Positions 12,736 to 31,355 of a DNA stretch of 35,259 nucleotides are shown here, piece after piece. The notes beneath the pieces were generated by a model. That model saw nothing but the letters and a program-made list of their open reading frames with translations. It made no database searches and was not told where the DNA came from. The number at the start of each line of letters is the position of its first letter. Within the stretch, counting starts at the first letter, position 1. Source of the DNA: an uncultured bacterium (GTDB lineage: Bacteria; Bacteroidota; Bacteroidia; Bacteroidales; CAIWKO01). The stretch is taken from positions 1 through 35,259 of the forward strand of contig CAIWVT010000347.1 of NCBI GenBank assembly GCA_903916135.1, given 5' to 3'. The position numbers and the translations under genes are program-made.

Positions 12736-13057
12736 CCAAATTGGATATTTTACATTTATTGTATGTTTGAATGTTGATAAAATATGCTTTTTAAGTATAT
12801 TTCTACATCAACATAATGGAATATCTTTCTCATAAAAAATAAACATAGATGAGGATTTAAACCTATACATATTTCAAAGAAATAAAACAATTGTATATCA
12901 ATGTGTTATATCTTTCTATAAAAATAAAATCCACCCAATTCAACGGTTCAGAAGTTTTTCGCTCCATAGCTCCTCTTCTCTATGCAAATAAAATAAATTT
13001 TTGGATTTGGAGCCGTATGCGTCCTGCAAACTTTAAGTACTCCAAACTTTAGGCACT

Positions 13058-14998
13058 TCACACTTCCTCTTTATACATATTTCGGTAGCGAACCGCATTG
13101 TCCAATGCATCCATGATCTCGCGTGTGAAACCCGCAGGCTGTTGCTCGGGAAATTCTGCTGTGGTTTCTGCGGTTGTGGCTATCACCTTGGGCATCGCTC
13201 GGTCGCAAATGTCGCGAATATGCTCTCTGTGGAAGTCGTCCATGCCTTCAAAGGTATCGCCAAAGCGGTCGCTGAAGTCGAGCATAGCGGCAACGATAGT
13301 TTTATAGATGATTTCTTTCTTGGGCGTATGACTGCGCACATGTTTGTAGGCTTCCGCCACCAAATGTTTGCCATTTTCGCGAATTTTCTCCGAAACGGGG
13401 ATGTCGCACGAATCCACTTTCACCTTTGTGGGATTGTCGCGCTCCCATTGTGCCATTTCGCGCGCCACTTTTGCATCATAAGCAGAGCGCTTACAATCAA
13501 TAATGAAAAAAGTGTACATATATACTATCTTCGGCATCAGAAACCCCAACTTTTTTTTATCGGTAGCGCGCAATATCTTAAAGAAAGTCTGCCGATCTTT
13601 CTTAGGGATTTTAAACATGAAGTACATAAACATACTTCCCATCATTTTTCGCATCGCCCAAAAGGAAGAAAACCCGGGAGGCTTAGCCATGGGAGTGTAA
13701 TTGATACCTTTTATATAGCCCAACGCACGTTCGAGAAACTTTTCATGCACATAAATCTTATCCCAATAGTCAGCCAACCCCTCAAACAGTTCGATGCGCG
13801 ACATATTTTTTGGAATTATATTGGTGATGATATCCATTTTGTCGCTCGCTTCCTCATGCTCGGTGGTCACCAGACGTCCTTGCCGTTTATAGTCATACCA
13901 CATCTTCGTGCCCGGAGGCGCTGCCAAAGTATGACATATATGGAAGATGATGTTTGCCTCTTGCACGAAATTCGCGGTCTTGTCGAACACCGTTTCGTCG
14001 TCAGAATCTGCGCCAATAATCATGTGAACCAACACCGCCATGCCATAGGACTGAATTTTCTTAATAGCCGCAGTTGCCGACACACCGATATTTTGCTTTT
14101 TGTTCATATCCTTCAGCGAATCATCGTTCACCGATTCAATTCCTATCATCAAGTTATAAAAATTGGCATCGGCTAACAGCTCCAACAGCTCATCGTCCTC
14201 TGCCACCGTGATATCCAATTGGGTAAAGAAGCCCATCGGCACTTTAAACGAGTTGTTTAACACAATTAACTGCCGCAAGAGATCTTTCACATACTTCCTA
14301 TCTCCCGCAAAATTATCATCTGCAATGAAAACCATCATCACTTTCAAATCATTCAACCTACGGATTTCTTCCAACACCTGTTCTATTGATTTGCTGCGCG
14401 GTTTTCGACCGTAAGTATAGATAACATCGCAAAAACTGCAGTCAAATGGACATCCGCGCGTGGTCTGAACCGAAACGGAATTGTAAGCGCAAATATCTTT
14501 CGCTATCAAATCCCAACGGGGGGGCGGAGTTTTGGTCATGTCGGGCTTCGAAACGTTTTTATACACCCGCTGATATGTGCCCGTCTTGTAATCCTCCAAA
14601 AATCTGCCCCAAGTGTCTTCCGCTTCGCCATGAAAAACCACATCAATGTCTTCCTTATTTTTATAGATGAGCGTCTCGACACCGATGCCGCCCACCACTA
14701 ATAATGATTTCGGACAAAATTTCTTACACAACTGTGCTATCTTCAAACTTCGTTGCAGTTGATTAGAAGTGATGCTCACCCCGATGATATCGTAGTCGGT
14801 CTCGGGCAAAAAATCATCCACCGGACCTTTCATGTATTCATCATGGAGCGTAACTTCGTGTTCCCGCGGAGTCAATGCTGCCACCGTGGCGATTGCATGA
14901 GGTGCCGTGAATGCTTTGGCAAACAGATAAGGAATTTGGCGAATAATCAAATTATCAATTTCGTCGGGCGAGCCGGGACTTATGAGGAGTATTTTCAT
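13058..14998 (-). CDS. B12-binding-domain radical SAM protein (class B, DUF4070-type C-terminus)
   Basis: 646 aa. The N-terminal Rossmann-like segment (MKILLISPG..., LLVVGGIG) is followed by the radical-SAM cluster motif TTRGCPFDCSFCDV and a long C-terminal extension. Confidence 0.85.
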   Translation of the reverse strand: MKILLISPGSPDEIDNLIIRQIPYLFAKAFTAPHAIATVAALTPREHEVTLHDEYMKGPVDDFLPETDYDIIGVSITSNQLQRSLKIAQLCKKFCPKSLLVVGGIGVETLIYKNKEDIDVVFHGEAEDTWGRFLEDYKTGTYQRVYKNVSKPDMTKTPPPRWDLIAKDICAYNSVSVQTTRGCPFDCSFCDVIYTYGRKPRSKSIEQVLEEIRRLNDLKVMMVFIADDNFAGDRKYVKDLLRQLIVLNNSFKVPMGFFTQLDITVAEDDELLELLADANFYNLMIGIESVNDDSLKDMNKKQNIGVSATAAIKKIQSYGMAVLVHMIIGADSDDETVFDKTANFVQEANIIFHICHTLAAPPGTKMWYDYKRQGRLVTTEHEEASDKMDIITNIIPKNMSRIELFEGLADYWDKIYVHEKFLERALGYIKGINYTPMAKPPGFSSFWAMRKMMGSMFMYFMFKIPKKDRQTFFKILRATDKKKLGFLMPKIVYMYTFFIIDCKRSAYDAKVAREMAQWERDNPTKVKVDSCDIPVSEKIRENGKHLVAEAYKHVRSHTPKKEIIYKTIVAAMLDFSDRFGDTFEGMDDFHREHIRDICDRAMPKVIATTAETTAEFPEQQPAGFTREIMDALDNAVRYRNMYKEEV

Positions 14999-17882: not shown

Positions 17883-18271
17883 TATAGCGGTTAAATAGTG
17901 AAATATAAAAGGTAACACACCAGTAAAAACGGGCAATTAGCTTCATATAGAGATTAACAAACTCTCTATAGACATGAATTTGTCCTCTATAGAGATTAAC
18001 GACCTCTTTATAGACATAAATTTGTCCTCTATAGAGATTAACGACCTCTTTATAGACATAGATTTGTCCTCTATAGAGATTAATGAGTCCTCTATAGAGA
18101 TTAACGACCTCTCTATAGCGGGCAATGAACCAATGATAGCGGGTAATGAGCTCTCTATAGCGGGCAACATCCTCTCTATAGCGGGCAAATAGGTTTATAT
18201 AGCGGGTAATTCATCAAATATAGCGGGCAACAAGCCATATATAGCGGGTAACGCACTACCACTATGTTTCC
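17883..18271. repeat. 21-bp tandem array A (18 in-register units) plus terminal unique 11 nt
   Basis: TATAG anchors fall at 17883 + 21n without a single slip. There are 3 degenerate units, then 8 units of type tataga[g/c]at..., then 7 units of type tatagcggg[c/t]aa.... The array ends in cgcactaccactatgtttcc. Confidence 0.93.
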
Positions 18272-18347
18272 AACAGTTTGTTACCAACGAATGATGTCCT
18301 AATCCAAAATCTCAAATCGTAAATAAGGAGTTACTATCTACATTTTT

Positions 18348-18379
18348 TTGTTTACGTATTGATATTATTAGTAATTTTG
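18348..18379 (+). promoter_or_regulatory. putative promoter for rarA
   Basis: TTG at 18348-18350, then 21 bp, then TAATTTTG (matches TAnnTTTG) at 18372-18379, 17 bp before the ATG. Confidence 0.3.
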
Positions 18380-18395
18380 GGCTTTAATTTGAGAT

Positions 18396-19670
18396 ATGAT
18401 ACGAAACGAACCTTTGGCGGAACAGATGAGACCTGCGAGTTTTGATGACTATATTGGTCAGCAGCATTTGATTGGACGGGAGGCGGTGCTGCGGAAGGCG
18501 ATTGAGGGGGGGACGCTGCCGTCGATGATTTTGTGGGGACCGCCGGGGGTGGGTAAGACGACGTTGGCGTTTATTGTTTCGCGGATGTTGGACCGCCCGT
18601 TTTATACGCTGAGCGCGGTGAATTCGGGGGTGAAGGACGTGAGGGCTGTGATTGAACAGGCGACGGCAGGACGGGAGAAGACGATTTTGTTTATTGATGA
18701 GATTCATCGGTTTAATAAAGGTCAGCAGGATTCGCTGCTGAGCGCGGTGGAGAAAGGGGTGATTACGCTGATAGGGGCGACAACTGAGAATCCGTCGTTT
18801 GAGGTGATTTCGCCGCTGTTGTCGCGCTGCCAAGTGTATATTTTGAAGAACCTGGATGAGGGGGAGCTGCTGAGGATTTTGGGGAAGGCGCAAGGGATTT
18901 TGGAGCAGGAGTTGGGACGCAAGATTGCGGTTGAGGAGAGCGAGGCGTTGATACGAGTGAGCGGCGGGGATGCGAGGAAGTTGTTGAATGCGTTTGAGTT
19001 GGTGGTGGATTCGCAACGGGGGGCTGAGGGGGAGATACGTATAGGGAATGGGTTGGTGATGGATGTGATTCAGCAGAATTTGGCGTTGTATGATAAGTTG
19101 GGGGAGCAGCATTATGATATTATTTCGGCGTTTATAAAGTCGATGCGGGGAAGCGACCCGAATGGGGCGGTGTATTGGTTGGCAAGGATGGTGGACGGGG
19201 GTGAGGATCCGAAGTTTATAGCGAGAAGGATGCTGATTTTGGCGTCGGAGGATATAGGGAACGCGAACCCCAATGCGCTGCTGTTGGCGACGAATTGTTT
19301 TCAGGCGGTGCAGATGATTGGATACCCGGAGTGTGAGTTGATTTTGTCGCAGACGGCGATTTATTTGGCGAGTTCGCCCAAGAGTAATGCGTCGCTGATG
19401 GCGATAAAAAATGCGCACGCGCAGATTAAGCAGAGCGGGAATTTGGCGGTGCCGTTGGCGCTGCGGAATTCACCGACGAAGTTGATGAAGGAGATAGGCT
19501 ACGGCAAGGCGTATAAGTATGCGCATGATTATGAGGATAATTTTGTGGCAGAGGAGTTTTTGCCGAAGGAAATAGCGGGGACGAAGTTTTATGAGCCTCA
19601 AGGGAATGCAAGGGAGAAGGAGTTGCGGGAGTTTTTGAAGAAGAGATGGGGGGGGAAGTATGGGTATTGA
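18396..19670 (+). CDS. rarA: replication-associated recombination protein A (AAA+ ATPase)
   Basis: 424 aa with LAEQMRPASFDDYIGQQHL, Walker A GPPGVGKTT, Walker B ILFIDEIHRFNK, and the C-terminal MgsA domain (ALYWLARM-like VYWLARMVDGGEDP). Confidence 0.92.
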   Translation: MIRNEPLAEQMRPASFDDYIGQQHLIGREAVLRKAIEGGTLPSMILWGPPGVGKTTLAFIVSRMLDRPFYTLSAVNSGVKDVRAVIEQATAGREKTILFIDEIHRFNKGQQDSLLSAVEKGVITLIGATTENPSFEVISPLLSRCQVYILKNLDEGELLRILGKAQGILEQELGRKIAVEESEALIRVSGGDARKLLNAFELVVDSQRGAEGEIRIGNGLVMDVIQQNLALYDKLGEQHYDIISAFIKSMRGSDPNGAVYWLARMVDGGEDPKFIARRMLILASEDIGNANPNALLLATNCFQAVQMIGYPECELILSQTAIYLASSPKSNASLMAIKNAHAQIKQSGNLAVPLALRNSPTKLMKEIGYGKAYKYAHDYEDNFVAEEFLPKEIAGTKFYEPQGNAREKELREFLKKRWGGKYGY

Positions 19671-19750
19671 GTTTTTTAGTTCGGAGTTCGGAGTTTAGAG
19701 TTCCGGAACACTACGAATTACGAATTTGCGAATTACTAATTACGCATTTT
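19671..19750. repeat. 7-8-bp low-complexity tract
   Basis: Reads ttagttcggagttcggagtttagagttccgg, then acgaattacgaatttgcgaattactaattacgcatt, immediately after the rarA stop. Confidence 0.75.
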
Positions 19751-19811
19751 ACAGTGTCAGGAAATAAGTTGAATGGTTTATTGAGTTGGGAATTAAATAT
19801 GAAAAGAGCGC

Positions 19812-19839
19812 TTGATATTATTTTCTTTGTGTATCTTTG
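19812..19839 (+). promoter_or_regulatory. putative promoter for the 19871 operon
   Basis: TTG at 19812-19814, then 17 bp, then TATCTTTG (matches TAnnTTTG) at 19832-19839. Confidence 0.3.
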
Positions 19840-19870
19840 TGGTCTTAATGGTTAAAAATTTTATGTTTCT

Positions 19871-21460
19871 ATGTGTTTAAGTGGTAAAATAAGGTGGTTT
19901 GTGTTGGCGGTGATTTTGGTTTTTGTTGTGGGAGGCTGCAAGAAAAAGGTGAGTCCGAGTTGGGATGTGGCGGTGTATGCTCCTTTGTTGGTGGCTGATT
20001 TGGGTTTTAATGATATAGTGCCTGATTCGCTGTTGGAGATGAACCCCGATAATTCGTTGAACTTGGTGTATAAGTATCAGTTTTATAATTTCTCGTTGGA
20101 TTCGTTGGTGAATTTTCCGGATACTATCTCACATAAGTATTTGCCACCCTTGGGCGGAGTGGTGTTGCATCCGGGACAGATATTTTTTAATTTTACGGAG
20201 AATTCAGTGCTGAATATTCCGAATGCAGATGTGGCGCAAGTGGATTTTCATAAGGGGTTTTTGGTGTTGGAGGTTTTTGCTACGATTACACAGCCATCAT
20301 ACGTTACCTATAAAATACCATACGCGCGGAAAAATGGGGTTGCTTTTCAGGTGACGGAGTTGATTCCGGCAGCACCTGTGGGAGGCACGACGCATGTGGA
20401 ACGGTTGGTGGATTTGTCGGGTTATAGTTTGGATATGAGAGGACCTACACACGTTAGTTCGAACATTTTGACGAATCAAACGATAGCGCAATTGGACGCG
20501 AATGCGGATACGGTTACGATGACGAATGCAGATATTTTTAATTTTAATGTGCGGTTCGAGGATTTGTCGTTTGCATACGCGAAAGGGTATTTCGGTAGTC
20601 AATATACGGTTTTTGGACCTGACACTACGAAGATTGATATGTTTAATAACATCGTGGCGGGTTCGTTTAATTTGGAGAGTGCAAAACTGACCTTGTCGGT
20701 GGAGAATGGCTTTGGGATAGATGCAAGGGTGATGTTTAATAGTATTGCCACGACGAATTCGCAGACGGGTTTAACAACAGCACTTTCGGACCCAATAATT
20801 GGACAGACGATAAATATATCGAGGGCTACGGAGACGTTTAATCCGCTGCAACCTGTGAATCCATCGGTGTATAATTTTGAAATGAATAGCTCTAATATAC
20901 CACAAATTATAGAGAATATGCCTGACAAGATTTCGTATAAAATGCAGGTGACTACGAATCCGTTGGGGAATGTTTCGGCAGGGAACGATTTCATTTATTA
21001 TGGAAATTATTTGAATGCTTCGCTGAATTTGGAGATTCCGTTGTCGTTTATAGCGAACGATTTGACCTTGTCGGAAGATGTGGTGTTAGATTTGGGAACG
21101 TATAACGATAATCCGTCGTCGGGGAAGTTGAAGTTGATTGTGGATAATGGGTTTCCGTTTAGTGCCGATGTGCAGATATATATGTTGGATGCTAATAATC
21201 AAATCAGTGATTCGCTGTTTGTGCCGACTTTGATAGATGCGCCGATGTTAGATGCGGATTATAAAGTGATAAGTCCAAAGCGTTCGGAATTGGAAGTGTG
21301 GTTGTCAGAGAGTAAATATTTGGCATTGTTCAGCACGAAAAAAGTTAGGGTAAAGGCGCGTTTCAACACGGCAGGCGTAAGCAATTTCGTTAAAATCTAT
21401 AGCTATTATAGGCTTAAGTTGAAAGTTACCGGGGATTTTAATTATTTGGTGGAGATGTAG
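19871..21460 (+). CDS. hypothetical lipoprotein (529 aa)
   Basis: Lipoprotein signal with a lipobox-like VVGGC. Beta-rich throughout. The stop lies 5 bp before the next gene. Confidence 0.7.
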   Translation: MCLSGKIRWFVLAVILVFVVGGCKKKVSPSWDVAVYAPLLVADLGFNDIVPDSLLEMNPDNSLNLVYKYQFYNFSLDSLVNFPDTISHKYLPPLGGVVLHPGQIFFNFTENSVLNIPNADVAQVDFHKGFLVLEVFATITQPSYVTYKIPYARKNGVAFQVTELIPAAPVGGTTHVERLVDLSGYSLDMRGPTHVSSNILTNQTIAQLDANADTVTMTNADIFNFNVRFEDLSFAYAKGYFGSQYTVFGPDTTKIDMFNNIVAGSFNLESAKLTLSVENGFGIDARVMFNSIATTNSQTGLTTALSDPIIGQTINISRATETFNPLQPVNPSVYNFEMNSSNIPQIIENMPDKISYKMQVTTNPLGNVSAGNDFIYYGNYLNASLNLEIPLSFIANDLTLSEDVVLDLGTYNDNPSSGKLKLIVDNGFPFSADVQIYMLDANNQISDSLFVPTLIDAPMLDADYKVISPKRSELEVWLSESKYLALFSTKKVRVKARFNTAGVSNFVKIYSYYRLKLKVTGDFNYLVEM

Positions 21461-21465
21461 ATTGT

Positions 21466-22791
21466 ATGAAGAAGCGTTTCATCAAATACACACTCCTATC
21501 CATAAGTTTGCTCATCGCAGAACTTATTGGGACGCCTGCCTTTGGGCAGTATAAATTTACGTATTGTCCCTTAGGAACCTCAGCACCTATGGTGGCTTCG
21601 GAGCATGAAAGCTATCAGGCGATAGATTATCAAAAGATTTATCTTGACTTGACATCCGAGTTATATATGAATTCTAATGGGTTGACGAATCAGTTTGTGA
21701 GCAAGTTCTATTATGGAAGTTTTTTGGATACGCCACTCAAGACACAGAATTGGAATAGGCTTAACGGTCAACATAATCTGCTTGGCTATTTCTTTAACAG
21801 CAGTTTGCGCCTTAATGTTCCTGCAAAAAAGAACGGGTTTAGTTATTATGCTGCATACGAAAACCATAATATGATGGAAGTGAAATTCCATGAAGACTTT
21901 TTTCATCTCATCTTCTTTGGAAATAGAGATTTGGCGGGGCAGTCGGCAACATTCGACAAGCAATCGTTCAAAACGATGAGCTATCAACAATTCAAAGTGG
22001 GTGTGGTAAAAACGTGGTTTAAACAATCGAAAGTTCAGGTTTTTTCTGCAGGATTGGGTTTTAATAATGGTCAGAGTTTGATGGAGTATTCTATTCCGTC
22101 AGCTTCTTTTTTCACACAGGAGAATGCGGAATATCTTTCCTTAGATATGAATGTGAATATGCGACGTTCGGATACTGTTAGGACAAAATTTGGTGCGGAA
22201 AATGGTGCAGGAATGTGTTTGGATTTGTCATTTTATCAACGCAATCCAAAAAGTTCGATTGAAGTTAAAGTGGAAGACCTTGGGTTTATACGTTGGAATA
22301 ACCATTCTCAACAGTATAAAAAGGATACTTTGGTATATTTTGAAGGTATTGAAATTAAAGATATCTTCGATTTGAATTCGGCTACCAACACAGGACTCAC
22401 GCAGGACAGCATCATGAATGAGTTTGCTTTTGGCGATCAATCTGCTTTCACCGAAATGATTCCGATGAGAGCTTCGGTGAATTATACGCATTATTTCTTC
22501 AATAACAGATTGTCGCTGTCGCTGACTTTGATTCATTATCATTTTTTACATTTCAATCCTTTGATTCGATTTGTTCCTACGTATGTCATTTCTATAAAGA
22601 AGTCGAGTATCTGTATCGCACCCAATTTTGAGTACGGGGGTTATGGCAAATTTAATTGTGGGCTTGGTATTTCGGCATCTGTAAAACAGAAATTCTATAT
22701 AGAATTGAGCACGGCTTTCATCAACTCCTATTTGGATGCTAAGAAAGCAGCGGGTTTGGGTGGATTTGTTTCTATAATTAAAACTTTGTAA
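21466..22791 (+). CDS. hypothetical secreted, probably outer-membrane beta-rich protein (441 aa)
   Basis: Signal peptide MKKRFIKYTLLSISLLIAELIGTPAFGQ. Alternating aromatic/polar strand-like segments run to the C-terminus. Tightly coupled to both neighbouring genes. Confidence 0.65.
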   Translation: MKKRFIKYTLLSISLLIAELIGTPAFGQYKFTYCPLGTSAPMVASEHESYQAIDYQKIYLDLTSELYMNSNGLTNQFVSKFYYGSFLDTPLKTQNWNRLNGQHNLLGYFFNSSLRLNVPAKKNGFSYYAAYENHNMMEVKFHEDFFHLIFFGNRDLAGQSATFDKQSFKTMSYQQFKVGVVKTWFKQSKVQVFSAGLGFNNGQSLMEYSIPSASFFTQENAEYLSLDMNVNMRRSDTVRTKFGAENGAGMCLDLSFYQRNPKSSIEVKVEDLGFIRWNNHSQQYKKDTLVYFEGIEIKDIFDLNSATNTGLTQDSIMNEFAFGDQSAFTEMIPMRASVNYTHYFFNNRLSLSLTLIHYHFLHFNPLIRFVPTYVISIKKSSICIAPNFEYGGYGKFNCGLGISASVKQKFYIELSTAFINSYLDAKKAAGLGGFVSIIKTL

Positions 22792-22792
22792 G

Positions 22793-24280
22793 ATGAAAAA
22801 GTCATTACTCTTTTCTTTTTTAACTTTATGTAGTTTAATGTGTCTGCAATATACTATAAAGGCGCAATCTGTAAAGTTTAATCACACCTATGGCAGCATG
22901 GCTTATAACTTCGGCAAACGCATAATTGAAACCAGCGATCGCGGATTTTATATGATGGGTAATGTTAGTGCTGTTTCGGGCAATACCAACATCAGTATCA
23001 TCAAAACCGATTCCTTGGGAATCATTCTATCCGAAAAAATTATTGGTGATGCTTCTCTTTACTGGGCAAACGACTTTATTCGAACTTCCGACAAGGGATA
23101 TCTTATTAGCGGTTTCACCAACAAACATCCAGAAAATGGCTACGACATGTTGTTGATAAAGACAGATTCTAACATCAATATTGAATGGGAGCGCTACTAT
23201 GGTGGCAGCGATTGGGATATTGCGAATGCAGTTGTCGAAACTAAAGACAACGCCTACCTAATGGTGGGGCAAACCTATTCCTATGGTGCTGCAAATGGAA
23301 ATATCTATATTGTCAAAACCAATTATCTTGGTGATACGCTATGGACGCGAACTTTCGGTGGCGATAGTGCAGATTATGCCATGTCTGCTGACGTTCTTTT
23401 TGATAGCACGTATCTCATAGGAGCAACCACCAAGAGTTTTGGATTTGGAGATTATGATGCTTATGTTATCAACCTCAATAAAAACGGAGATACAATATGG
23501 ACAAAAAATTACGGGCAAGACAAAGAAGACATTATTTACTCAATAAAGCAATCCCCCGACTCGGGTTTTGTATTTGTCGGTTCCACCACAAGTTATAATG
23601 CTATTGGGCTTGAAACTTGGTTGATGAAGTTTGATAAAAACCGTAATTATATTTGGAAATTGCCCGAATTCTGGGATATTAAAAATGGCGATCAACTTGC
23701 ATACAATATTAATTTTACCGATTCTGCACATTTTTTGATTACCGGTTATACAACAGCCCTTAATGGCTCTAAAGATTTATCTTTGATTATCATGAGGGAT
23801 TTTGCAAATTTTAAATTCAGCATTACATCCAGTTCATTATTTGATGACGCTGGTTATCAGGCAATACAAACTGCCGATAAAGGCTTTGCTATCGTTGGTT
23901 ATACCGAAGGGTTTGGAACAGCTTTATCCAACTTTTTTGTCGTCAAGATAGGAAATGATTGCAGCTATTCAACTACGTATGAACATATCCTTGATGTTGA
24001 AGAACCTCCGATTGTATCAGAAAATGATTTATTTGGTATTTACCCTAATATCTCTGAAGGGAAATATAATATCAATCTTAAAGAAAGCAACAGCAAGCAA
24101 AACTATGATATTTCGGTTATTAATGTTGTCGGGCAGGAAATATTCAGAGGCAAGTGGGAAACTTCCTTAGGCGACATTTATAAAATAGACATATCAAATG
24201 CTGCTGATGGGATGTATTTCGTTACCGTTGCATCATTCGAAATAAAAAGCAGTTTTATGCTTGTTAAGAGCAGCAAATAA
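22793..24280 (+). CDS. secreted repeat (beta-propeller-like) protein with T9SS C-terminal sorting domain
   Basis: Signal peptide present. At least 6 repeats of the pattern D.GY...G.T.S.G (SDRGFYMMGN, SDKGYLISGFT, KDNAYLMVGQTYSYG, DSTYLIGATTKSFG, DSGFVFVGSTTSY, DKGFAIVGYTEGFG). The C-terminal ~80 aa IYPNISEGKYNINL...VINVVGQEI...IDISNAADGMYFVTV match the type A Por secretion tail pattern. Confidence 0.8.
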   Translation: MKKSLLFSFLTLCSLMCLQYTIKAQSVKFNHTYGSMAYNFGKRIIETSDRGFYMMGNVSAVSGNTNISIIKTDSLGIILSEKIIGDASLYWANDFIRTSDKGYLISGFTNKHPENGYDMLLIKTDSNINIEWERYYGGSDWDIANAVVETKDNAYLMVGQTYSYGAANGNIYIVKTNYLGDTLWTRTFGGDSADYAMSADVLFDSTYLIGATTKSFGFGDYDAYVINLNKNGDTIWTKNYGQDKEDIIYSIKQSPDSGFVFVGSTTSYNAIGLETWLMKFDKNRNYIWKLPEFWDIKNGDQLAYNINFTDSAHFLITGYTTALNGSKDLSLIIMRDFANFKFSITSSSLFDDAGYQAIQTADKGFAIVGYTEGFGTALSNFFVVKIGNDCSYSTTYEHILDVEEPPIVSENDLFGIYPNISEGKYNINLKESNSKQNYDISVINVVGQEIFRGKWETSLGDIYKIDISNAADGMYFVTVASFEIKSSFMLVKSSK

Positions 24281-24315
24281 TTCGTTTTTATATATAATTT
24301 CGATAAATTTTTTAA

Positions 24316-25605
24316 GTGAAAAAAAACAAATTCATAACAATATTTGTGTGGCTATTGATAACTGCACTTTTCATTTTTCTAACATTAAACAAACATTCGC
24401 GTTCTGGAATATTTAATTATCATAGCGAAATTTGGGCTGATAAAGCCGGATATTATGTCTATCTCCCATTGACTTTCATCTATCATTTTGATGCAAGCTC
24501 TTTTCCCGATTCTATTACTGACAAAATTGGTGGTGGTTTTATAATTGACACCATCAACAATGTCGTCAAAACAAAATGCAATTATGGTGTAGCATTATTG
24601 CAGGCTCCTTTTTTTCTTATTGTTCATTTTATAGCAAAACCCCTTGGCTATCCCGATAATGGATTCTCTATGCCATATAACCGCTCCATTGATTTTGCTG
24701 CTGTATTCTACTTAGTAATGGGGTTGTTTTTTCTGTGGAAATATCTAAACAAACGTTTTAGTAAAAAGTTAAGTTTCTTTGCACTATTCTTTTTAATCGC
24801 TGCTACCAACCTGTATTATTATGCAATTGACGAAACAGGAATGTCGCACATTTATTCCTTTGCAATTTTTGCAACATTAATATGGTTGATTGATTTTTTT
24901 GACTTAAAAAAGCAAACGCACCTACTTTTATTATCACTGTTATTTGCCTTATTAATAGTCGTGCGACCTATTAATATAATTTTTATTTTGTTCCTAATCC
25001 TTCTCCAAAAAGACAAACTAAAACTTTGGCTTTCTGATTTCAAAAAAATTAAACCTCAAAAAACTATTATTGTATTACTACCGGCAATGCTAATAATTTC
25101 CTTACAGTTCTTCTATTGGAAATATGCATCAGGAAATTATTTCTCATACTCTTATAAAGGAGAATCTTTTACCAACCTATTTAATCCTCAGATATTCAAG
25201 GTGTGGTTTTCCACACAAAACGGACTATTTATCTACACTCCAATTTGGTTATTTATAATAATAGGTATAGGTAAGATGATTTTTGACAAACAAAAGAACG
25301 GCTGGATGTATCTATCGCTCTTTTTTGTTTTAAGTTACATAATTGCTTCTTGGTGGAGTTGGTCAATGGGATGCGGTTTCGGAAACCGCGCTTATGTTGA
25401 ATACCTAACGATTTTCATCACACCTGCCATCTTCTTATGGAAAAAAATAGCTACTTCTAAAATACTTTCATATAGTATCATTTGCCTATTTGTGTTATGT
25501 GCAATTTATAACCTTCAACTAACGTATGCTTGGGATGGTTGTTGGTATGGAGGTATATGGGATTGGCAGCTTTTGTGGCAAAAGTTTTTATCAACTTTCA
25601 ATTAG
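24316..25605 (+). CDS. polytopic membrane protein, possibly GT-C (ArnT/PMT-like) glycosyltransferase
   Basis: GTG start, 429 aa, at least 10 hydrophobic helices with aromatic-rich loops. The functional call rests on topology and composition only. Confidence 0.5.
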   Translation: MKKNKFITIFVWLLITALFIFLTLNKHSRSGIFNYHSEIWADKAGYYVYLPLTFIYHFDASSFPDSITDKIGGGFIIDTINNVVKTKCNYGVALLQAPFFLIVHFIAKPLGYPDNGFSMPYNRSIDFAAVFYLVMGLFFLWKYLNKRFSKKLSFFALFFLIAATNLYYYAIDETGMSHIYSFAIFATLIWLIDFFDLKKQTHLLLLSLLFALLIVVRPINIIFILFLILLQKDKLKLWLSDFKKIKPQKTIIVLLPAMLIISLQFFYWKYASGNYFSYSYKGESFTNLFNPQIFKVWFSTQNGLFIYTPIWLFIIIGIGKMIFDKQKNGWMYLSLFFVLSYIIASWWSWSMGCGFGNRAYVEYLTIFITPAIFLWKKIATSKILSYSIICLFVLCAIYNLQLTYAWDGCWYGGIWDWQLLWQKFLSTFN

Positions 25606-25623
25606 CAATTTGAATAATCCATC

Positions 25624-26262
25624 CTATTCCTTCCCCTTATACACCCTCTCCCCTGCCAAAATCTCCACCGCCAAATGATTCTCCGCAGGCGGAATCGGAC
25701 ACGAATACTTCGGATTATGATAACAGCACGATGGATTAAAAGCCTTATTAAAATCTATAACCAACTCATCGCCCACCGGAATCTTCAACTCCAAAAACCT
25801 TCCACCTCCATACGTCTGTTTGCCGTTTGTCAAATCCTTAAATGGCAAAAACAAATCATCCTTATACTGCGCATCGTTTATAAGTTTCATATATTGATAC
25901 ACATTCAACTTACACACCTTGCCGTTCAACCAAAAAGTCGCCTCCCCATACTTCCTATACGTGCCCGTATTGCCCTTTGAACGTGGCATTTCAAAAGGCA
26001 CTTCGTTTGGCGTCAGCACTAATTTCGCCACCACCCGATATTTCAACTTTATCTTAAAAAAAGCTATCTTCTTAAACGTCTTCAAACCTTCTTTCGTCAA
26101 CGGACTCTCCGCGCTATCAGCAAACTCCTTATTCATATCGGTTCTATAACTCTCATTATCCTTCACAATTTCCTTCTTCACACTTTGACCAAAAACACAA
26201 TAGCCATTTGCACCAAAAATCATAAGAACAAATGCCAACAACACATAATAAATATACCTCAT
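25624..26262 (-). CDS. DUF1684 domain-containing protein
   Basis: Signal peptide plus the hallmark C-terminal region TNGKQTYGGGRFLEL...IDFNKAFNPSCCYHNPKYSCPIPPAENHLAVEILAGE. Confidence 0.85.
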   Translation of the reverse strand: MRYIYYVLLAFVLMIFGANGYCVFGQSVKKEIVKDNESYRTDMNKEFADSAESPLTKEGLKTFKKIAFFKIKLKYRVVAKLVLTPNEVPFEMPRSKGNTGTYRKYGEATFWLNGKVCKLNVYQYMKLINDAQYKDDLFLPFKDLTNGKQTYGGGRFLELKIPVGDELVIDFNKAFNPSCCYHNPKYSCPIPPAENHLAVEILAGERVYKGKE

Positions 26263-26371
26263 AATCTATTTTTTTTCAAAAATACACAATATTCTCATAC
26301 CAAACATTATTTTCTATCAAATAATTATTCAAGAAATCGTACTTTTGTAAAATCTTGAACATTCAACATAG

Positions 26372-27400
26372 ATGAAACCAACTTCCAACTCTAAAAATAG
26401 CAACCAATATCTTTCATCCGCCTATGCATTCATCAAACGTTTCGGGCTTGATGGATTCATCCTTGCACTGATGAGCATGATTCTGCTCGCATATTTCTTT
26501 CCTCACCTTGGCTCCAAAGATTCCCCTGTACCCCTCTCTGCCATTGCCAACTACGGCGTTTCGCTCATATTCTTCTTCTACGGATTGCGCCTCAGTCCAC
26601 AAAAGCTCCTTGCGGGCATCGCCAATTGGCGCTTACATTTGCTTATCCACAGTGCCACCTTTCTCGTCTTTCCCCTTTTGGTCATCGCGGCGCGCTTGCT
26701 CATCGGCAACGTCATCAACGACCTCATTTGGCTCGGAATTTTCTTCCTCGCATGTCTCCCTTCCACGGTCTCATCCTCCGTCGTCATGGTCTCAATTGCG
26801 CGCGGCAACATTCCGGCAGCCATCTTCAACGCCAGCATCTCCACGCTAATCGGAGTATTCATCACCCCGCTTTGGATGGGCATCTTCATGAACTCCTCCA
26901 CCCAATCGCTCGACCTCCTCCCCATCATACTCAAACTAACTCTTCAGGTGCTCCTACCCGTCATCCTTGGCATCCTACTACATTCCAAATGTGGCGCATT
27001 TGCCGAACGCCACCGCAAACAACTACGCTATTTCGACCAATCCATCATCCTACTCATTGTCTTCACCGCCTTTTGCGAATCCTTTGCCCAGCGCATGTTT
27101 CAGGGCTATTCCCTGCTCTTTCTCATCCTCTTGGGAGTCGCCTTATGCGTGCTGTTCTATCTGGTCTATGGCATCATATACCTCACCTCCAAACTCCTCA
27201 AATTTAACCGCGAAGACAAAATCACAGCCATGTTTTGCGGCTCCAAAAAATCCCTTGTCCACGGCACCGTCATGTCCAAAATCCTCTTCGCCCACAGCCC
27301 CTATATCGGCATCATCCTGCTGCCCATCATGATGTATCACGCCCTGCAGCTCATTATGGTCTCCATCATCGCACAAAGGATGGCGAGGAGGAAGGTATGA
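26372..27400 (+). CDS. bile acid:sodium symporter (BASS/YfeH-like) family transporter
   Basis: 342 aa, about 9-10 TM helices. The LDGFILALMSMILLAYFFPHLG start and CLPSTVSSSVVM motif are typical of the YfeH/BASS group. Confidence 0.8.
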   Translation: MKPTSNSKNSNQYLSSAYAFIKRFGLDGFILALMSMILLAYFFPHLGSKDSPVPLSAIANYGVSLIFFFYGLRLSPQKLLAGIANWRLHLLIHSATFLVFPLLVIAARLLIGNVINDLIWLGIFFLACLPSTVSSSVVMVSIARGNIPAAIFNASISTLIGVFITPLWMGIFMNSSTQSLDLLPIILKLTLQVLLPVILGILLHSKCGAFAERHRKQLRYFDQSIILLIVFTAFCESFAQRMFQGYSLLFLILLGVALCVLFYLVYGIIYLTSKLLKFNREDKITAMFCGSKKSLVHGTVMSKILFAHSPYIGIILLPIMMYHALQLIMVSIIAQRMARRKV

Positions 27401-27491
27401 AGTACTTAAAGTGCCTAAAGTACTTCAAGTATTTAATGTACTTAGTGAATTGTGATGGGTTATTTTAGAATGTTATTTATAGCAAAGCTCG

Positions 27492-27763
27492 GGAAACATA
27501 GTGGTAGTGCGTTACCCGCTAAAAAGAGGAAGTTGCCCGCTAAAAAAAGGAAGTTGCCCGCTACAGAGAGGAAGTTGCCCGCTACAGAGAGGAAGTTGCC
27601 CGCTACATAAACCTATTTGCCCGCTACAGAGAGGAAGTTGCCCGCTAAAAATAGCAAATTGCCCGCTACAGTGAGGAGGTTGCCCGCTACAGAGAGCTAA
27701 TTACCCGCTGTCAATTGCTTGTTGCCCGCTAAAGAGAGGAAGTTGCCTGATGTTGTGATTATA
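27492..27763. repeat. 21-bp tandem array B (11 good units plus 1 degenerate), an inverted copy of the CGGGCAA part of array A
   Basis: Units tt[g/a]cccgcta + 11 nt start at 27512 + 21n. The array is preceded by ggaaacatagtggtagtgcg. Positions 27492-27521 are the exact reverse complement of 18242-18271. Confidence 0.93.
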
Positions 27764-27852
27764 ATGGAGTGAGTTTGTATCTTATATCTGATGCTATGCA
27801 AAAGTCCGAAGGACTGAAATTATTGTAGAAAATTATTAAGATAGACCTATAT

Positions 27853-27949
27853 AAAATCCCGAAGGGATGAAATTATAATGTCACCCATTCTGGGTTTTAT
27901 CATTATCTGAATTCTGTGTTCTATAATATTATCATCCCTTCGGGATTTT
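27853..27949. repeat. inverted-repeat pair built on tccc-gaa-ggga hairpins
   Basis: The sequence aaaatcccgaagggatgaaattataat (27853-27879) pairs with ataatattatcatcccttcgggatttt (about 27924-27949) as an imperfect inverted repeat about 45 bp apart. A related agtccgaaggactgaaattat lies at 27803-27823. Confidence 0.7.
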
Positions 27950-27970
27950 AGCATAATGTGTAACATCAGT

Positions 27971-28329
27971 TATAAAGAGATGAAAAAGCTCTCTATAGAC
28001 ATGAATGAGCTCTCTATAGAAATGAATTTGTTCTCTATAGACATGAATGAGCTCTCTATAGAGATGAATTTGTCCTTTATAGACATGAATGAGCTCTCTA
28101 TAGAGATGAATTTGCCCTCTTTAGACATTAATGAGCTCTCTATAGAGATGAATTTGTTCTCTATAGACATTAATGAGCTCTCTATAGAGATTAATATGTT
28201 CTCTATAGAGATGAATGAGCCATTTATAGACATTAATGAGCTATTTATAGAGATGAATTTGCAATTTATAGAGATGAATTTGTCATTTATAGAGATGAAT
28301 TTGTCCTCTATAGCGTTCTATAAATTCTC
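27971..28329. repeat. 21-bp tandem array C (16 in-register units plus 1 offset partial unit)
   Basis: TATAG anchors fall at 27994 + 21n up to 28309. Units alternate between tatagaCatgaatGAGCTCtc and tatagaGatgaatTTGTyCtc, giving a 42-bp super-period. The core ctctatagag is a 10-bp palindrome. Confidence 0.93.
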
Positions 28330-28540
28330 CAAACAGCCTATTGACCACTTTACAGCCAAAAACATGCTTTTTTATATATTTTATGCTCAATAATTAGTAT
28401 TTATAGCTTAAAACTTAATATTTAAACCTTAAAACTTGATATTTTAGGTCACAAATCACCAACTTTAGGAAATGGATAGGAAATTCTTAGTGCCTCTTAG
28501 TGCTCTTAGTGCCTCAGTGGTTTCTTTTATAAATCAAAAA

Positions 28541-29422
28541 TCAACAAATCAACCGCAACGAACTCGGCACAACCTTCACTTCAAGCTCTTTGCCCAAGTC
28601 AATTTCGTCGCCATCTATGTGGGCGATGTTGTTTTTTTGTTGGATGATGCGCGCGTCGGTGGTTTTGAAGATGCGGATGAAGGGTGTTTTGTGGGCTAAA
28701 CCCACGAAGATAAACGGAATCACGAAAGCGGCATAATAGATAAGCGGTTTGCGGATGATACATAGGTTGAGCAAGCCGTCGTCTATGATGGAAGTGGGCG
28801 AAATGCGCGTGTTGAAGCCAAATTGGTCTGAGTTTGCCACGCATATCATAAAGGATTTTGTTTTGATGATGCGTTCGTTCACATAAATCTTGAAACGCTT
28901 GGGGTTGTAGCGAATATATTCCATGAAAGCTATCTTGGCATAAGACCAAAAGCCGCGCGTTTTGACCTGCGAGAAGCGTTCGGCGACATAAGCATCGAAG
29001 CCCACGCCTGCAATACTGACAAAGACGCGCCCGTTGATGGTGCCCGTGTCTATGGTTTTCACCTGATAGCGATTGATGAGCAGCAAAGCCTTGCGCACAT
29101 TGAGGGAAATCTTCATGAAACGCGCCAAACCATTGCCGGAACCTGCGGGAATGATGCCCATGGCGGTTTGGGTGTGAAGCAAAGCCTGCGCGACCTCGTT
29201 GACGGTGCCATCGCCGCCCACGGCAATGACGGCAGCGTAGCCCATCTGAGCCGCCTCACGACTCAACTCAATGGCATGAGCCTTGGCTTGGGTGTAGCAG
29301 ATTTCGTAATCGAAGGCAGCCTTGTCCAAATGGGTTTCGATGCGGCGCTCGACAATCTTTTGCTTGCCAATGCCCGATTTGGGATTGATGATGAAGCGTA
29401 TTTTGCGGGGCGGGTTACTCAT
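28541..29422 (-). CDS. YegS/BmrU-type diacylglycerol-kinase-family lipid kinase
   Basis: Contains KIRFIINPKSG, AVGGDGTVNEV and IIPAGSGNGLAR. The true start is the Met at 29422 (MSNPPRKIRF), which overlaps the upstream stop by 8 bp (ATGAGTAA). The longer ORF-track N-terminus is an out-of-frame overlap with the LtaS gene. Confidence 0.85.
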   Translation of the reverse strand: MSNPPRKIRFIINPKSGIGKQKIVERRIETHLDKAAFDYEICYTQAKAHAIELSREAAQMGYAAVIAVGGDGTVNEVAQALLHTQTAMGIIPAGSGNGLARFMKISLNVRKALLLINRYQVKTIDTGTINGRVFVSIAGVGFDAYVAERFSQVKTRGFWSYAKIAFMEYIRYNPKRFKIYVNERIIKTKSFMICVANSDQFGFNTRISPTSIIDDGLLNLCIIRKPLIYYAAFVIPFIFVGLAHKTPFIRIFKTTDARIIQQKNNIAHIDGDEIDLGKELEVKVVPSSLRLIC

Positions 29423-30911
29423 GGGTGTCGCTGAGTTTGTTTTGGAGCATGCGTTGGTTGTAGGCTTGGATGAGCGCTTTGGTAAACTGCTCCAATTCGT
29501 GCGCCTTGGCGACATTGGATAGGAGGAGATTGTTTTGAAGGAGGCGGTCGTTGGTGATGTCATACAAGGCGGTGGCTTTTTCGCCATTGAATTGGAGCAC
29601 ATAGCCGTCTTTGATGAGTTGATAGGAGCTGTTGAGATAGCTGATGGCAAAATGGGGCGCAGCGGAGTCGAAAACACTGCTTCCGAAGGCTACATATTTA
29701 TCTTTATAGTGAACAAAATCGAGCAGGGAAGGCAATATGTCGGCTTGTTGGGTGATGGTTTTGTTGATGCCTTGCATTTGGGGGTTGTTGTGCATATAAT
29801 AAATGATGGGAATGGCGTAGGTGCCCAAATTATTTTGATAATAGGAGTTGTAAGCCAAGGAAGAATGGTCGGCAGTGATGACAAATAGGGTGGAATCGAA
29901 CCATGGAAGGTGTTCGCAGGTGTGGAAAAACTCCTTCAAGGCGTGGTCGGTGTAGCCAATGCTCTCGTGAATCTCTAAAGTTCCTTTGGGGAATTGGTTT
30001 TTATACTTAGGCGGGATGGTGTAGGGATGATGGGACGACAATGTGAAGATGGTGGAGAAGAAAGGTGGTTTGGTTTTGGTCATAGTGTTGGCGGCATATT
30101 GAAGAAACTCCTCGTCGTAGATACCCCATTTGCCATCAAAATCTTTATCATTGTTGTATTCGTTTTTGCCATAGTAGGCATCGAAGCCTGCCATCTTGGC
30201 ATAAGCATCGAAGTTCATGGTTCCGTTTTTTCCGCCGTGATAAAAGGCAGAGGTGTAGCCTTCATGTTTCAAAACAAGCGGTAAGGAATTGACTTTGTTG
30301 CCCGAAAACATGGAAGTGATGTAGGCATCGTTCATCAAAGAAGGCAAACCTGAAGCGACGGAAGGGATGCCTTCGATGGAACGTTTTCCATTGGAGAAAG
30401 CATGCTCCATAACCATACTATGTTGGATTAAAGAATCGAGAAAGGGGGTGTAGCCTTTATAGTTGCCATTGCCAATATCGTGATTGAGGGAGCCGATATA
30501 TTCGCGGGAAAGGCTTTCGACAATAATAATAATGATGTTGAGATGGCGGAAGCTTTCGCCTGAAGAAACATTGTTTTGAACGATAGGGTTGAAGATGTTG
30601 CGTGCTTTGACATTCGAAAAATATTTTCTGTCATCTAAGCTTTTCATCTCGATGGTACTGAAGATGGAGAAAGGCGTGTTTACAAGCAGGGGAGCGTTTT
30701 GCGGATTGGTGTATTCGCCAGCATTAATCATACTCAGCGGTCGCAAACGGAATCCACCACGAGCGATAAAAAGCGAAGAACCCATAATTAAAATAAACCA
30801 TAAGAGGCTCAAAAGAAAATGCTTCACGGTTTTGATTTGCGTATGCTTTACTTGTTTTGTTTTTCTATAGAGAAATACCATGGAGACAATAAAAGCTGCG
30901 GCAATTACCAC
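29415..30911 (-). CDS. LTA-synthase/sulfatase-family protein, catalytic part (fragment of an interrupted gene)
   Basis: Alkaline-phosphatase-superfamily motifs are present (IIIIVESLSREY, SNGKRSIEGIPS, TADHS). In frame with 30927..31355 across a single TAA. Confidence 0.8.
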   Translation of the reverse strand: MVIAAAFIVSMVFLYRKTKQVKHTQIKTVKHFLLSLLWFILIMGSSLFIARGGFRLRPLSMINAGEYTNPQNAPLLVNTPFSIFSTIEMKSLDDRKYFSNVKARNIFNPIVQNNVSSGESFRHLNIIIIIVESLSREYIGSLNHDIGNGNYKGYTPFLDSLIQHSMVMEHAFSNGKRSIEGIPSVASGLPSLMNDAYITSMFSGNKVNSLPLVLKHEGYTSAFYHGGKNGTMNFDAYAKMAGFDAYYGKNEYNNDKDFDGKWGIYDEEFLQYAANTMTKTKPPFFSTIFTLSSHHPYTIPPKYKNQFPKGTLEIHESIGYTDHALKEFFHTCEHLPWFDSTLFVITADHSSLAYNSYYQNNLGTYAIPIIYYMHNNPQMQGINKTITQQADILPSLLDFVHYKDKYVAFGSSVFDSAAPHFAISYLNSSYQLIKDGYVLQFNGEKATALYDITNDRLLQNNLLLSNVAKAHELEQFTKALIQAYNQRMLQNKLSDTHE

Positions 30912-30926
30912 AACATACCAATAGTC

Positions 30927-31355
30927 TTATAAATAATTCCAAAACAAGGATTGTAAGTCATCGCCAATGATGGAGCCTTTGATGACATCAAAGGTGGTTC
31001 GGCGGAAGATGAATCGAAAGAAGACCAAATCAACGCAGTTGAAGATGATGCCGATAGTGTTAGTTACATAAAACACTATTTCTGCCACTAATTGATACCA
31101 TCTTTTCTCTCTGAAATTAATCGGAAGGGTTTGCATTATGATGAACAATGCGTTGATATATATAATTGCGGAAGCGTCGAAGAGCAAACCGAAAAATAAT
31201 ATCTTACACAAATCAACGCCAGTGATGGCTCCAAAGGTTCCTATATTCAGAAAATAAAACAGTAAGCGCAGGACAGTGTAAAGGAACATTACTATGCCAA
31301 GCCTTTTTAATAAAGTGCTATAAATTGTATTTGTGATTCGAAATCGTTGCATCAT
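30927..31355 (-). CDS. LTA-synthase-family N-terminal membrane domain (fragment of an interrupted gene)
   Basis: 142 aa with 4-5 TM helices, as found at the N-terminus of ~640-aa LtaS-family proteins. Ends at the TAA at 30927-30929, and the same frame continues DYWYVVVIAAAF.... Confidence 0.7.
   Translation of the reverse strand: MMQRFRITNTIYSTLLKRLGIVMFLYTVLRLLFYFLNIGTFGAITGVDLCKILFFGLLFDASAIIYINALFIIMQTLPINFREKRWYQLVAEIVFYVTNTIGIIFNCVDLVFFRFIFRRTTFDVIKGSIIGDDLQSLFWNYL

Follow-up and report, generated by a model that had tools for sequence, protein, structure and literature searches.

The iterons of theta plasmids (P1 incC/incA, F ori2/incC, R6K) are asymmetric sites of ~10–20 bp, set head-to-tail 21–22 bp apart in 4–9 or more copies; often there are two arrays per replicon with partial inverted copies of the site adjacent, and it is there that unwinding and synthesis begin. 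Rolling-circle double-strand origins (dso) and conjugative origins of transfer (oriT), such as the 'bind' repeats and 'nic' hairpin of pMV158, place direct repeats beside a unique inverted repeat and support a polar, strand-specific process. In vertebrate mitochondrial DNA, the time spent single-stranded during strand-displacement replication leaves a gradient of strand asymmetry. The BOX elements of Streptococcus pneumoniae (boxA-boxBn-boxC) occur in ~100 or more copies per genome and have complementary ends that fold, while the Tus-Ter and RTP-Ter fork traps and the Sal box arrays of eukaryotic ribosomal DNA are polar protein-bound sites in opposed orientations, the Sal boxes standing downstream of genes. 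Here we describe two arrays of 21-bp units that face each other across a 9.2-kb gene block, from rarA to an SBF-like transporter gene, in an uncultured Bacteroidales bacterium (contig CAIWVT010000347.1 of assembly GCA_903916135.1; its 35,259 nt are hereafter the window). They are copies of a clade-specific, multi-locus, low-copy modular repeat, and steep strand-skew gradients occupy the coding sequence around them.

The arrays share with iterons a head-to-tail order, a helical phasing of exactly 21 bp and a conserved 10-nt core at which binding is predicted, but they are chromosomal, adjoin unrelated housekeeping genes and run to 7–22 units, and any activity is read from composition only; no Rep-like domain was found by Pfam in the open reading frames (ORFs) of the window or in the array flanks of related contigs L003, L010, L011, L021, and L023. 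Their likeness to a dso or oriT lies in a partial inverted core within the terminal unit and in polarity: in those systems the strand running 3′ from the start is displaced or re-made, matching the gradients in the window's clade. TCTATAGC may resemble the nic region of R388 (GTCT|ATAGC). They differ in that the same Pfam searches found no Rep or relaxase gene, several arrays have divergent gradients on both sides, and the arrays of one relative (bin-7433) do not fit the polarity. As in mitochondrial DNA, the G-versus-C skew at 4-fold degenerate sites is ~0.8–0.9 and graded with distance from the presumed start site, and A→G dominates at 2-fold sites; unlike it, the flanks are also depleted of T, the GC content at third codon positions (GC3) reaches 0.85, the gradient spans only 3–5 kb, and the chromosome is bacterial. 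With BOX elements the arrays share fixed ends, variable internal units in an A-Bn-C build, an intergenic position, and a strain-variable copy number, but they have ~2 detectable copies per genome, ends that are not complementary, a short conserved core whose spacers vary freely, and an association with gradients of composition. With the fork traps and Sal boxes, finally, the arrays share the two opposed orientations, but Ter sites are single and not arrayed, and the skew at the window arrays is origin-like (negative, then positive) and not terminus-like. For each family considered the arrays lack a defining trait, whether a rep gene, a recombinase, terminal inverted repeats (TIRs) and target-site duplications (TSDs), a high copy number, or a known RNA family.

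Architecture of the Arrays

The inner ends of the two facing arrays are formed by a single 30-mer, TAGCGGGTAACGCACTACCACTATGTTTCC, that occurs exactly twice in the window, once on each strand (Table 1), where chance would give none. The earlier note on this DNA had reported this exact inverted match, with 7 units on the left, 11–12 on the right, a 21-bp period, and a sharp loss of similarity at the inner edges, and each of these observations holds. A core scan places seven left cores on the + strand (18116, 18137 and so on to 18242) and eleven right cores on the − strand (27512 to 27722, one with a single mismatch), both with a period of exactly 21 bp; a twelfth right unit at 27743 is degenerate (TTGCCTGATG). 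Past the 30-mers only 18 of 60 positions are identical, so that similarity ends at the inner edges, while outward the inverted similarity of left and right covers 107 nt at 80% plus 51 nt at 86% (147 nt at 79% by blastn). Matches to TAGCGGGYAA number 23 in the window, against 2.8 expected.

The window contains additional 21/42-bp arrays. The outer left units (17885–18115) keep the 21-bp register of the CGGGCAA units, and the strongest left–right similarity is found between the T-type arrays TATAGAGA/TATAGACA, which match over 215 nt at 79% in plus/plus orientation within a common 21-bp frame. Because the array at 27976–28320 runs direct to the left one, the rarA–SBF block is flanked by direct as well as inverted repeats. 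We tentatively consider this array a third copy of the composite, pointing right.

A Modular Repeat Shared Among Lake Bacteroidota

When 185,579 species genomes were scanned for pairs of cores at a distance of 21 bp, arrays came up in three uncultured lake Bacteroidota: AlinenLipids_bin-6511 (L011, L003), Kiruna_bin-04925 (L021), and Bacteroidales bin-7433 (L023, L010). A metagenome scan with the terminal 20-mer added contigs L024 and L025. The site counts (two loci in bin-6511, two in bin-7433, one in the Kiruna bin) are lower bounds, as these metagenome-assembled genomes (MAGs) are fragmented. In the window's clade the module opens with an outer degenerate unit (CATCRGGCAA), continues with a variable number of core-plus-spacer units, and closes with a special last unit. 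Internal units comprise TAGCGGGCAA and an 11-nt spacer, the core, (TA)TAGCGGGCAA, being 10–12 nt long and repeated head-to-tail every two helical turns (21 bp); this spacing is kept by 6/6 to 12/12 successive cores per array. The spacers follow a common order (catgcaattga, ttagctctttg, cctcctctctg, ttagctatttt, cttcctctctg, ataggtttatg, cttcctctctg..., cttcctctttt), and the order of spacer types in the right array matches L003, L021, L011, and L024. Core positions hold 1.4–2.0 bits and spacers 0.5–1.1 bits, for units chosen by having at most one mismatch to the core. The last unit is a T-variant core followed by CGCACTACCAYTRKGTTTC, with CGCACTACCACTATGTTTCC as its tail in window-clade copies, and is conserved in L003, L011, L021, L024, L025, and L038. 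It contains a partial inverted copy of the core, CGGGTAAC-N13-GTTTCC in the left array of the window and CGGGTAAC-N13-GTTTCCCG for the terminal unit, with the variant AGCCCGCCA in L003, L021, and L024. The arrays of bin-7433 (L023, L010) have an identical core and period, other spacers, and their own ~45-nt terminal sequence common to both copies. A conserved asymmetric core on one helix face, free spacers, and a special end unit look like an array of protein-binding sites, and from this likeness we infer that a protein binds the cores.

The arrays lie at unrelated intergenic sites, mostly downstream of gene 3′ ends. Their neighbors are the 5′ side of rarA and the 3′ side of SBF in the window and, elsewhere, genes for an FAD oxidoreductase, a LysM protein, an S41 peptidase, a porin, and a thioredoxin. 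Copy number varies, the array of the L025 strain being exactly 126 bp (6 units) longer than that of the window. The two 30-mers of the window are identical and the two bin-6511 copies differ (ACTGGG vs ACTATG), which suggests gene conversion between copies. Related contigs stop within or just past arrays (L038 at 11600–11740, L024, L025), marking the arrays as a recurrent cause of assembly breaks in these MAGs. Tandem or paired 21-bp repeats with TAGCGGGCAA also occur in unrelated bacteria (L001, L005, L012, L015, L016, L019, L020) and in viral contigs L035 and L036, for example as 10 perfect copies in Parendozoicomonas and as pairs within a 101-bp triple repeat in L035; as they lack a skew gradient, we judge these coincidental and unrelated to the arrays.

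Skew Gradients Flank the Arrays

Throughout, skew means GC skew on the + strand, counted at 4-fold degenerate sites. Values for the window genes, from the Zn-ribbon gene to the ORFs beyond the sulfatase, are listed in Table 1. The effect is strongest beside the arrays: 4-fold sites of rarA hold G 0.80, C 0.05, A 0.08, and T 0.07, where the orthologue in an array-less relative holds A 0.33, C 0.16, G 0.17, and T 0.34; at 2-fold purine sites A/G counts are 11/68 against 63/18 in that orthologue, and codon positions one and two of rarA are shifted as well. GC3 falls from 0.78–0.92 within 1.2 kb of the left array to 0.32–0.5 at 3.3–4.5 kb, and from 0.90 to 0.22–0.38 with distance from the right array, so that the effect decays over 3–5 kb. 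Genes on the + and − strands of one domain have equal sign, indicating a property of the strand and not of codon preference. In the window's clade the polarity follows one rule, whereby the G-rich, C-poor strand is the one that runs 5′→3′ away from the array.

Within the block the two gradients converge. Cumulative G−C over 1126 4-fold sites turns at 22,864 (bootstrap 95% interval 22,395–22,972), and the midpoint between the two 30-mers is 22,881.5. This flip lies inside a conserved operon and therefore cannot be explained by inversion. A mosaic of inversions under strong global skew was rejected on the same ground, together with the graded GC3 and the presence of neutral stretches. We found no account of such arrays or of such local skew in the searchable literature, the motif appearing solely in primers; the 'extreme GC skew' of one report amounts to about ±0.03 (PMC9836097).

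Table 1. Features of the window around the arrays, with the skew at 4-fold degenerate sites
Feature	Position	Strand	4-fold skew	Description
Zn-ribbon gene			+0.75	
Outer part of left composite array, degenerate section	17885–17947	+		three C-type units TAGCGGTTAA, TAAAAGGTAA, AAACGGGCAA
Outer part of left composite array, T-type section	17948–18115	+		eight units, TAGAGATTAA / TAGACATGAA alternating, 42-bp super-period
Six C-type units	18116–18241	+		TAGCGGGYAA + 11-nt spacer, exact 21-bp period
Left terminal unit	18242–18271	+		exact 30-mer TAGCGGGTAA-CGCACTACCACTATGTTTCC
Promoter-like motif of Bacteroidetes type for rarA	18347–18379	+		TTTG-N21-TAATTTTG; consensus match only; 76 bp inside the 30-mer
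Zone of rarA, 529-aa protein and DUF5723	18396–22791	+		+ strand G-rich, C-poor at 4-fold sites; GC3 ~0.85 falling to ~0.4 from the left array
rarA			+0.89	
529-aa protein			+0.81	
DUF5723			+0.39	
Zone of T9SS-tail protein (T9SS, type IX secretion system), 429-aa protein, DUF1684 and SBF-like transporter	22793–27400			+ strand C-rich, G-poor; GC3 rises to ~0.78 near the right array
T9SS-tail protein			−0.46	
429-aa protein			−0.20	
DUF1684		−	−0.67	
SBF-like transporter			−0.66	
Right terminal unit	27492–27521	−		exact 30-mer
Eleven C-type units and outer degenerate unit	27512–27752	−		degenerate unit, reverse complement CATCAGGCAA
Hairpin-rich spacer beside right array	27780–27960			~180 nt; ~100-nt hairpin at 27852–27950; terminator-like stems on both strands
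Sixteen T-type units	27976–28320	+		CTCTATAGAGATGAA / CTCTATAGACATGAA; direct relative to the left T-type units; vestigial TATAGCG unit at end
Zone of DAGK-like kinase and sulfatase	28541–31000	−		+ strand G-rich (4-fold G 0.55–0.72; GC3 0.77–0.85), decaying rightwards
DAGK-like kinase (beyond right arrays)			+0.45	
Sulfatase			+0.70	
Two further ORFs	31420–31737, 31771–32430		~+0.8	

GC3 and skew peak beside every array of the window's clade that has a readable coding flank. In L003 the skew is −0.93 before the array, then +0.96 in the FAD oxidoreductase (a − strand gene) and +0.87 in UvrD (a + strand gene). On L038, where the 4-fold sites of the FAD oxidoreductase hold C 0.72 and G 0.00, the skew decays over ~9 kb through the FAD oxidoreductase (−0.99), MerR (−0.77), FtsX (−0.45), NamZ (−0.24), TPR (−0.07), and PMT_2 (+0.06); a HEPN/NTP_transf_2 pair (toxin-antitoxin-like) between the FAD oxidoreductase and MerR breaks the trend (+0.33, −0.20, each from ~30–40 4-fold sites). 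The Kiruna contig L021 has +0.73 in LysM and +0.41 in guaA, and L011 passes from −0.62 in SBF across the array to +0.45 in ASL. Three sets of orthologues that lack an adjacent array show no effect, namely the rarA block of L032, the FAD oxidoreductase of L039 (GC3 0.28, skew −0.11), and LysM/guaA of L043 (GC3 0.28 and 0.34), compared with L021. Among ~70 control genes from other phyla |skew| is at most 0.55, with one exception (+0.73, an ORF of GC3 0.17 on viral contig L036), and the skew of these genes shows no link to their TAGCGGGCAA repeats. Polarized recent substitutions in SBF (window, L011, L029) comprise 9 and 12 events only, too few to inform.

These comparisons bear on the view that an interspersed minisatellite, selfish or neutral and BOX-like in its A-Bn-C build, has spread or persisted in permissive intergenic DNA to give the arrays, while the skew arose separately and meets them by chance or through a preference of both for similar places, for example by slippage in DNA that is often single-stranded. 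We consider this distinctly unlikely. The modular ends with variable internal unit number, the differences in copy number between strains, the loss of the array at the SBF site in a close relative, and the location of sites mostly 3′ of genes all suit it, as does skew without arrays at a 10.7-kb flip in the window and at 2.2–8.3 kb of L043. The earlier note would have given up its own reading for a generic dispersed satellite had deep long reads shown one orientation only and the arrays been scattered singly at many unrelated intergenic sites; this is partly the case, those of relatives standing singly after FAD oxidoreductase, LysM, porin, and S41 peptidase genes. Against the satellite view, only ~2 copies per genome are detectable. 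Furthermore, the 10-nt core and 21-bp period were kept while spacers and terminal sequences diverged, and inspection by eye, no formal search having been made, revealed neither TIRs nor, at the five junction types compared, TSDs. The flip falls at the midpoint between the arrays, all readable array flanks in the window's clade have a peak, and the three orthologue comparisons tie that peak to the array; a pure selfish satellite would require that arrays and gradients coincide by chance.

Two observations concern skew away from the arrays. A second strong skew domain occupies 5571–12162 of the window, where the 4-fold-site C of the + strand rises from 0.27 to 0.60 toward the 3′ end of SufB, after which the strand is G-rich in ASL. 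Moderate, strand-coherent skew (−0.50, −0.67, −0.52, across + and − strand genes) is found at 2222–8335 of L043 (GCA_037128515.1, an array-less relative), around 850 bp of intergenic DNA in which the sole repeat is a 21-bp unit in 2.3 copies.

Outward transcription from the arrays would also produce the observed geometry, since the G-rich strand is the non-template strand of such transcription. The arrays might then yield a repeat-rich non-coding RNA, for instance a protein sponge, or act as a strong outward promoter whose R-loops leave the non-template strand exposed and so create the skew. The hairpin-rich, terminator-like segment beside the right array (AAGTCCGAAGGACT, ATCCCGAAGGGAT) would suit this: it is 85–90% conserved by the array in three genomes (window, L011 1985–2110, L021 120–300) and kept even where the opposite array flank differs. 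Approximately two copies per genome, moreover, recalls paired sponge small RNAs. We nevertheless judge this explanation improbable and disfavor it, because no Bacteroidetes-type promoter motif lies within 27380–28560 and because transcription would have to run antisense through whole genes; in L003 the FAD oxidoreductase gene has the G-rich strand as its template, which would require >4 kb of antisense transcription. The units on their own have no hairpin potential, and the hairpin-rich segment matches no Rfam family at the gathering score, relaxed scans of two intergenic regions returning only far sub-threshold models of eukaryotic microRNA and small nucleolar RNA type.

The rarA–SBF Block in Relatives

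The earlier note had proposed that the block might be a substrate for inversion or the cargo of a non-autonomous element, and had found no integrase, invertase, or transposase, an absence that Pfam confirms for every sizeable ORF of the window. Comparison with relatives supports neither proposal, although inversion is physically conceivable. Gene order (rarA, 529-aa protein, DUF5723, T9SS, ..., DUF1684, SBF) is the same in a 76%-identity relative with no array at either end (L032–L034). It is also kept in the L029/L030 genome, where SBF shares 93% identity with the bin-6511 SBF and no array follows. Synteny of the block without arrays does not support a non-autonomous element, nor do the outer arrays, which are direct and not inverted repeats. 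The Zn-ribbon protein was found on five contigs, four of which have the arrangement Zn-ribbon, array, rarA...SBF (one shown and three listed as similar), the fifth (L037, 1.8 kb) being too short to show it; the left junction is retained in L025 and the right junction in L027. Every assembly able to show the junctions (the window, four like contigs, L025, and L027) thus has one orientation, at least five public assemblies of the window species among them, although rare isoforms could go unseen in consensus assemblies. Neither RarA nor DAGK had an exact match in protein look-ups.

For programmed or RecA-mediated inversion of the 9.2-kb block at the facing arrays, or for arrays as the ends of a non-autonomous element carrying the block, one can cite the exact 30-nt inverted match at the inner edges with ~150 nt of ~80% inverted similarity, and flank shuffling that is compatible with rare array-by-array recombination in evolution. 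In addition to the points above, however, the other array-bearing genomes do not conserve a facing pair, and the inward gradients, flipping within a conserved operon, indicate that the block has long stood in its present orientation. We therefore regard this explanation as very improbable. The third proposal of the earlier note, that the arrays are paired loading or boundary sites, is indirectly supported in so far as each array has a gradient directed into the block and the two meet at its midpoint; the pairing itself is not conserved. The 9.2-kb block is an ordinary ancestral gene block between two sites that point at each other. We favor reading their facing arrangement in the window species as incidental but instructive, since the two tracts run into each other at mid-block.

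It is the neighborhood just past the arrays that changes from genome to genome. The gene after SBF is DAGK in the window, ASL in bin-6511, and HpcH in the L029 genome, and flank combinations are shuffled, the hairpin flank accompanying SBF in the window and L011 and LysM in L021. The arrays thus behave as rearrangement breakpoints over evolutionary time. This behavior suits a serious rival explanation, in which proteins bound to the arrays act as barriers that stall forks, or the arrays are fragile and break, and rounds of resection with repair synthesis in the flanks, or recombination with GC-biased conversion, yield the GC3 peaks and the skew. The arrays would then be hotspots of recombination and rearrangement, not start sites. 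We hold this to be unlikely, with an appreciable claim all the same: synteny breaks exactly at the arrays, flanks are shuffled among genomes, GC3 peaks that fade over 3–5 kb resemble the scale of conversion tracts, and the identical 30-mers of the window, set against the differing bin-6511 copies, point to conversion. The strand asymmetry is harder to accommodate. Canonical 5′ resection exposes the array-ward strand, which would give the opposite sign if damage to single-stranded DNA caused the skew, so that a G-biased repair polymerase would be needed; ordinary GC-biased conversion yields no asymmetry of G versus C. A Chi-like signal, moreover, should be over-represented outside the arrays, and CGGGCAA is not (11 occurrences vs 5–10 expected).

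The Arrays as Candidate Start Sites

The reading we favor, tentatively and at somewhat less than even confidence, is that the arrays are iteron-like loading or start sites of a polar, strand-specific DNA transaction. A putative DNA-binding protein, encoded elsewhere, would load at the iteron-like cores, and a strand-specific transaction would run outward from the arrays, repeatedly and for a few kb, perhaps as unwinding with strand displacement or as DNA synthesis primed at a nick or origin-like site. Over evolutionary time, the strand running away 5′→3′ would be driven to G and stripped of C at unconstrained sites, and the tracts of two facing sites would meet mid-block. The geometry of the gradients fits any array-started process that treats the outward strand differently; that strand might be the template for lagging-strand synthesis at an origin, it might be displaced or made anew in nick-primed synthesis of rolling-circle or oriT type, or it might be the non-template strand if transcription runs outward. 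Both the causal role of an array-started process and its nature are inferred.

Several observations weigh against this reading. Among the window ORFs and array flanks searched with Pfam as described above there was neither a candidate binding protein nor a Rep, relaxase, or nickase. The arrays and the DNA directly beside them are rich in AT and free of skew, and GC enrichment is confined to third codon positions, the spacers within the domains keeping only the sign of the skew (+0.37, −0.57, +0.46). Strand-specific depletion thus acts everywhere and the GC rise only at third codon positions, so selection or gene conversion must act besides mutation. At the 4-fold sites of rarA, T is depleted along with A and C, and deamination of an exposed strand is therefore insufficient by itself. 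The bin-7433 arrays break the polarity rule on the terminal side (porin +0.59 where a negative value is expected, S41 peptidase 0.02), have gradients on their outer side only, and in L010 show no flip. Positive skew extends to the Zn-ribbon gene, which lies outside the left array, and a gene boundary (22,792) likewise coincides with the flip within the block. A strong flip at 10.7 kb (SufB −0.77, ASL +0.25) has no 21-bp core array; because ASL adjoins an array in bin-6511, this is probably the fossil of a former array-adjacent junction. Similarly, L029/L030 retain the skew though the array after SBF is gone and the new right-hand neighbor has a GC3 of 0.23, which we read as the fossil of a lost array. 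The loci are few, and all of the evidence is correlative.

It is a further and more doubtful step to regard array and gradient together as a new kind of cis element, a set of start sites of recurrent, short-range (3–5 kb), strand-specific transactions in an uncultured Bacteroidota clade. Such a transaction could take the form of nick- or origin-primed strand displacement, abortive local replication, or Hfr-like mobilization by a factor encoded elsewhere, and would have to be mutagenic or conversion-biased enough to push the synonymous sites of neighboring genes to ~80% G on one strand. If the association is causal, this would be a natural example of a defined cis element that subjects ordinary chromosomal genes to a mutation or conversion bias that is steep, polar, and on the kilobase scale. 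It would provide a sequence-readable marker of the start sites of strand-specific processes in uncultured bacteria, account for local anomalies in codon usage that might otherwise pass for horizontal transfer or expression-linked bias, and point to a DNA-binding or initiating protein not yet known. On a more modest reading, the arrays still mark rearrangement breakpoints and contig breaks in these MAGs.

Identities Considered and Rejected

Other identities were rejected on specific grounds. An oriC is not supported, as no DnaA-box cluster was found: DnaA boxes have 16 matches in the window against 11.6 expected, none inside the arrays, whose flanks are AT-rich. A plasmid or phage origin was rejected as the arrays match none of 72,556 plasmids and the two viral-contig matches are the unrelated 21-bp repeats without skew. 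A CRISPR or guide-RNA array does not agree with 11-nt spacers of few types that are common to loci and genomes, nor with the lack of cas-like domains (Pfam). CGGGCAA outside the arrays, at the frequency given above under Markov models and with no strand bias, does not behave as a Chi-like signal. ARAGORN found no tRNA in the window, which removes a tRNA fragment or att site; a known RNA family was discarded because Rfam gave no match at the gathering score and chance-level matches at relaxed thresholds. Canonical promoters driving the arrays were dismissed, the Bacteroidetes −33/−7 motif occurring at rarA only and a sigma-70 scan being at chance level. A protein-coding heptad repeat (21 bp being seven codons) was rejected as the shared frame contains stops and the open frames differ between copies; by eye, the conserved ATAGGTTTATG unit puts a stop in an otherwise open frame (GCG GGC AA.), and bin-7433 units carry TGA there.

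Other Repeats in the Window

Short tandem repeats of 9–16 nt (AGTRCYTAAAG, AAACTCTGAACTC) start directly past the stop codons of several genes, in the window at 27400–27444, 28485–28515, 13027–13065, and 10705–10775, and in relatives at ~1540–1600 of L011, 2405–2450 of L010, and 6400–6450 of L023. After SBF they place an in-frame TAA, TAG, or TGA every few codons, and such repeats may be a clade-specific 3′-end signal or back-up stops. Two unrelated 42-bp tandem arrays of 5–6 copies lie in long AT-rich intergenic regions at 3838–4083 and 12521–12752; their units each carry an imperfect palindrome (ATGAAAAATACATTTTCCAT; GATTTTTTAAAATC), they are not centers of divergent skew, and the examined stretches of L011 and L032 hold no comparable array. 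At 32424–32680, between genes for small Ig-like surface proteins, complex repeats of 8, 17, 44, and 86 bp (TTGAGTTAA-type) are interleaved with a GC-rich hairpin, CCCGACACTGAGTGTACGGG.

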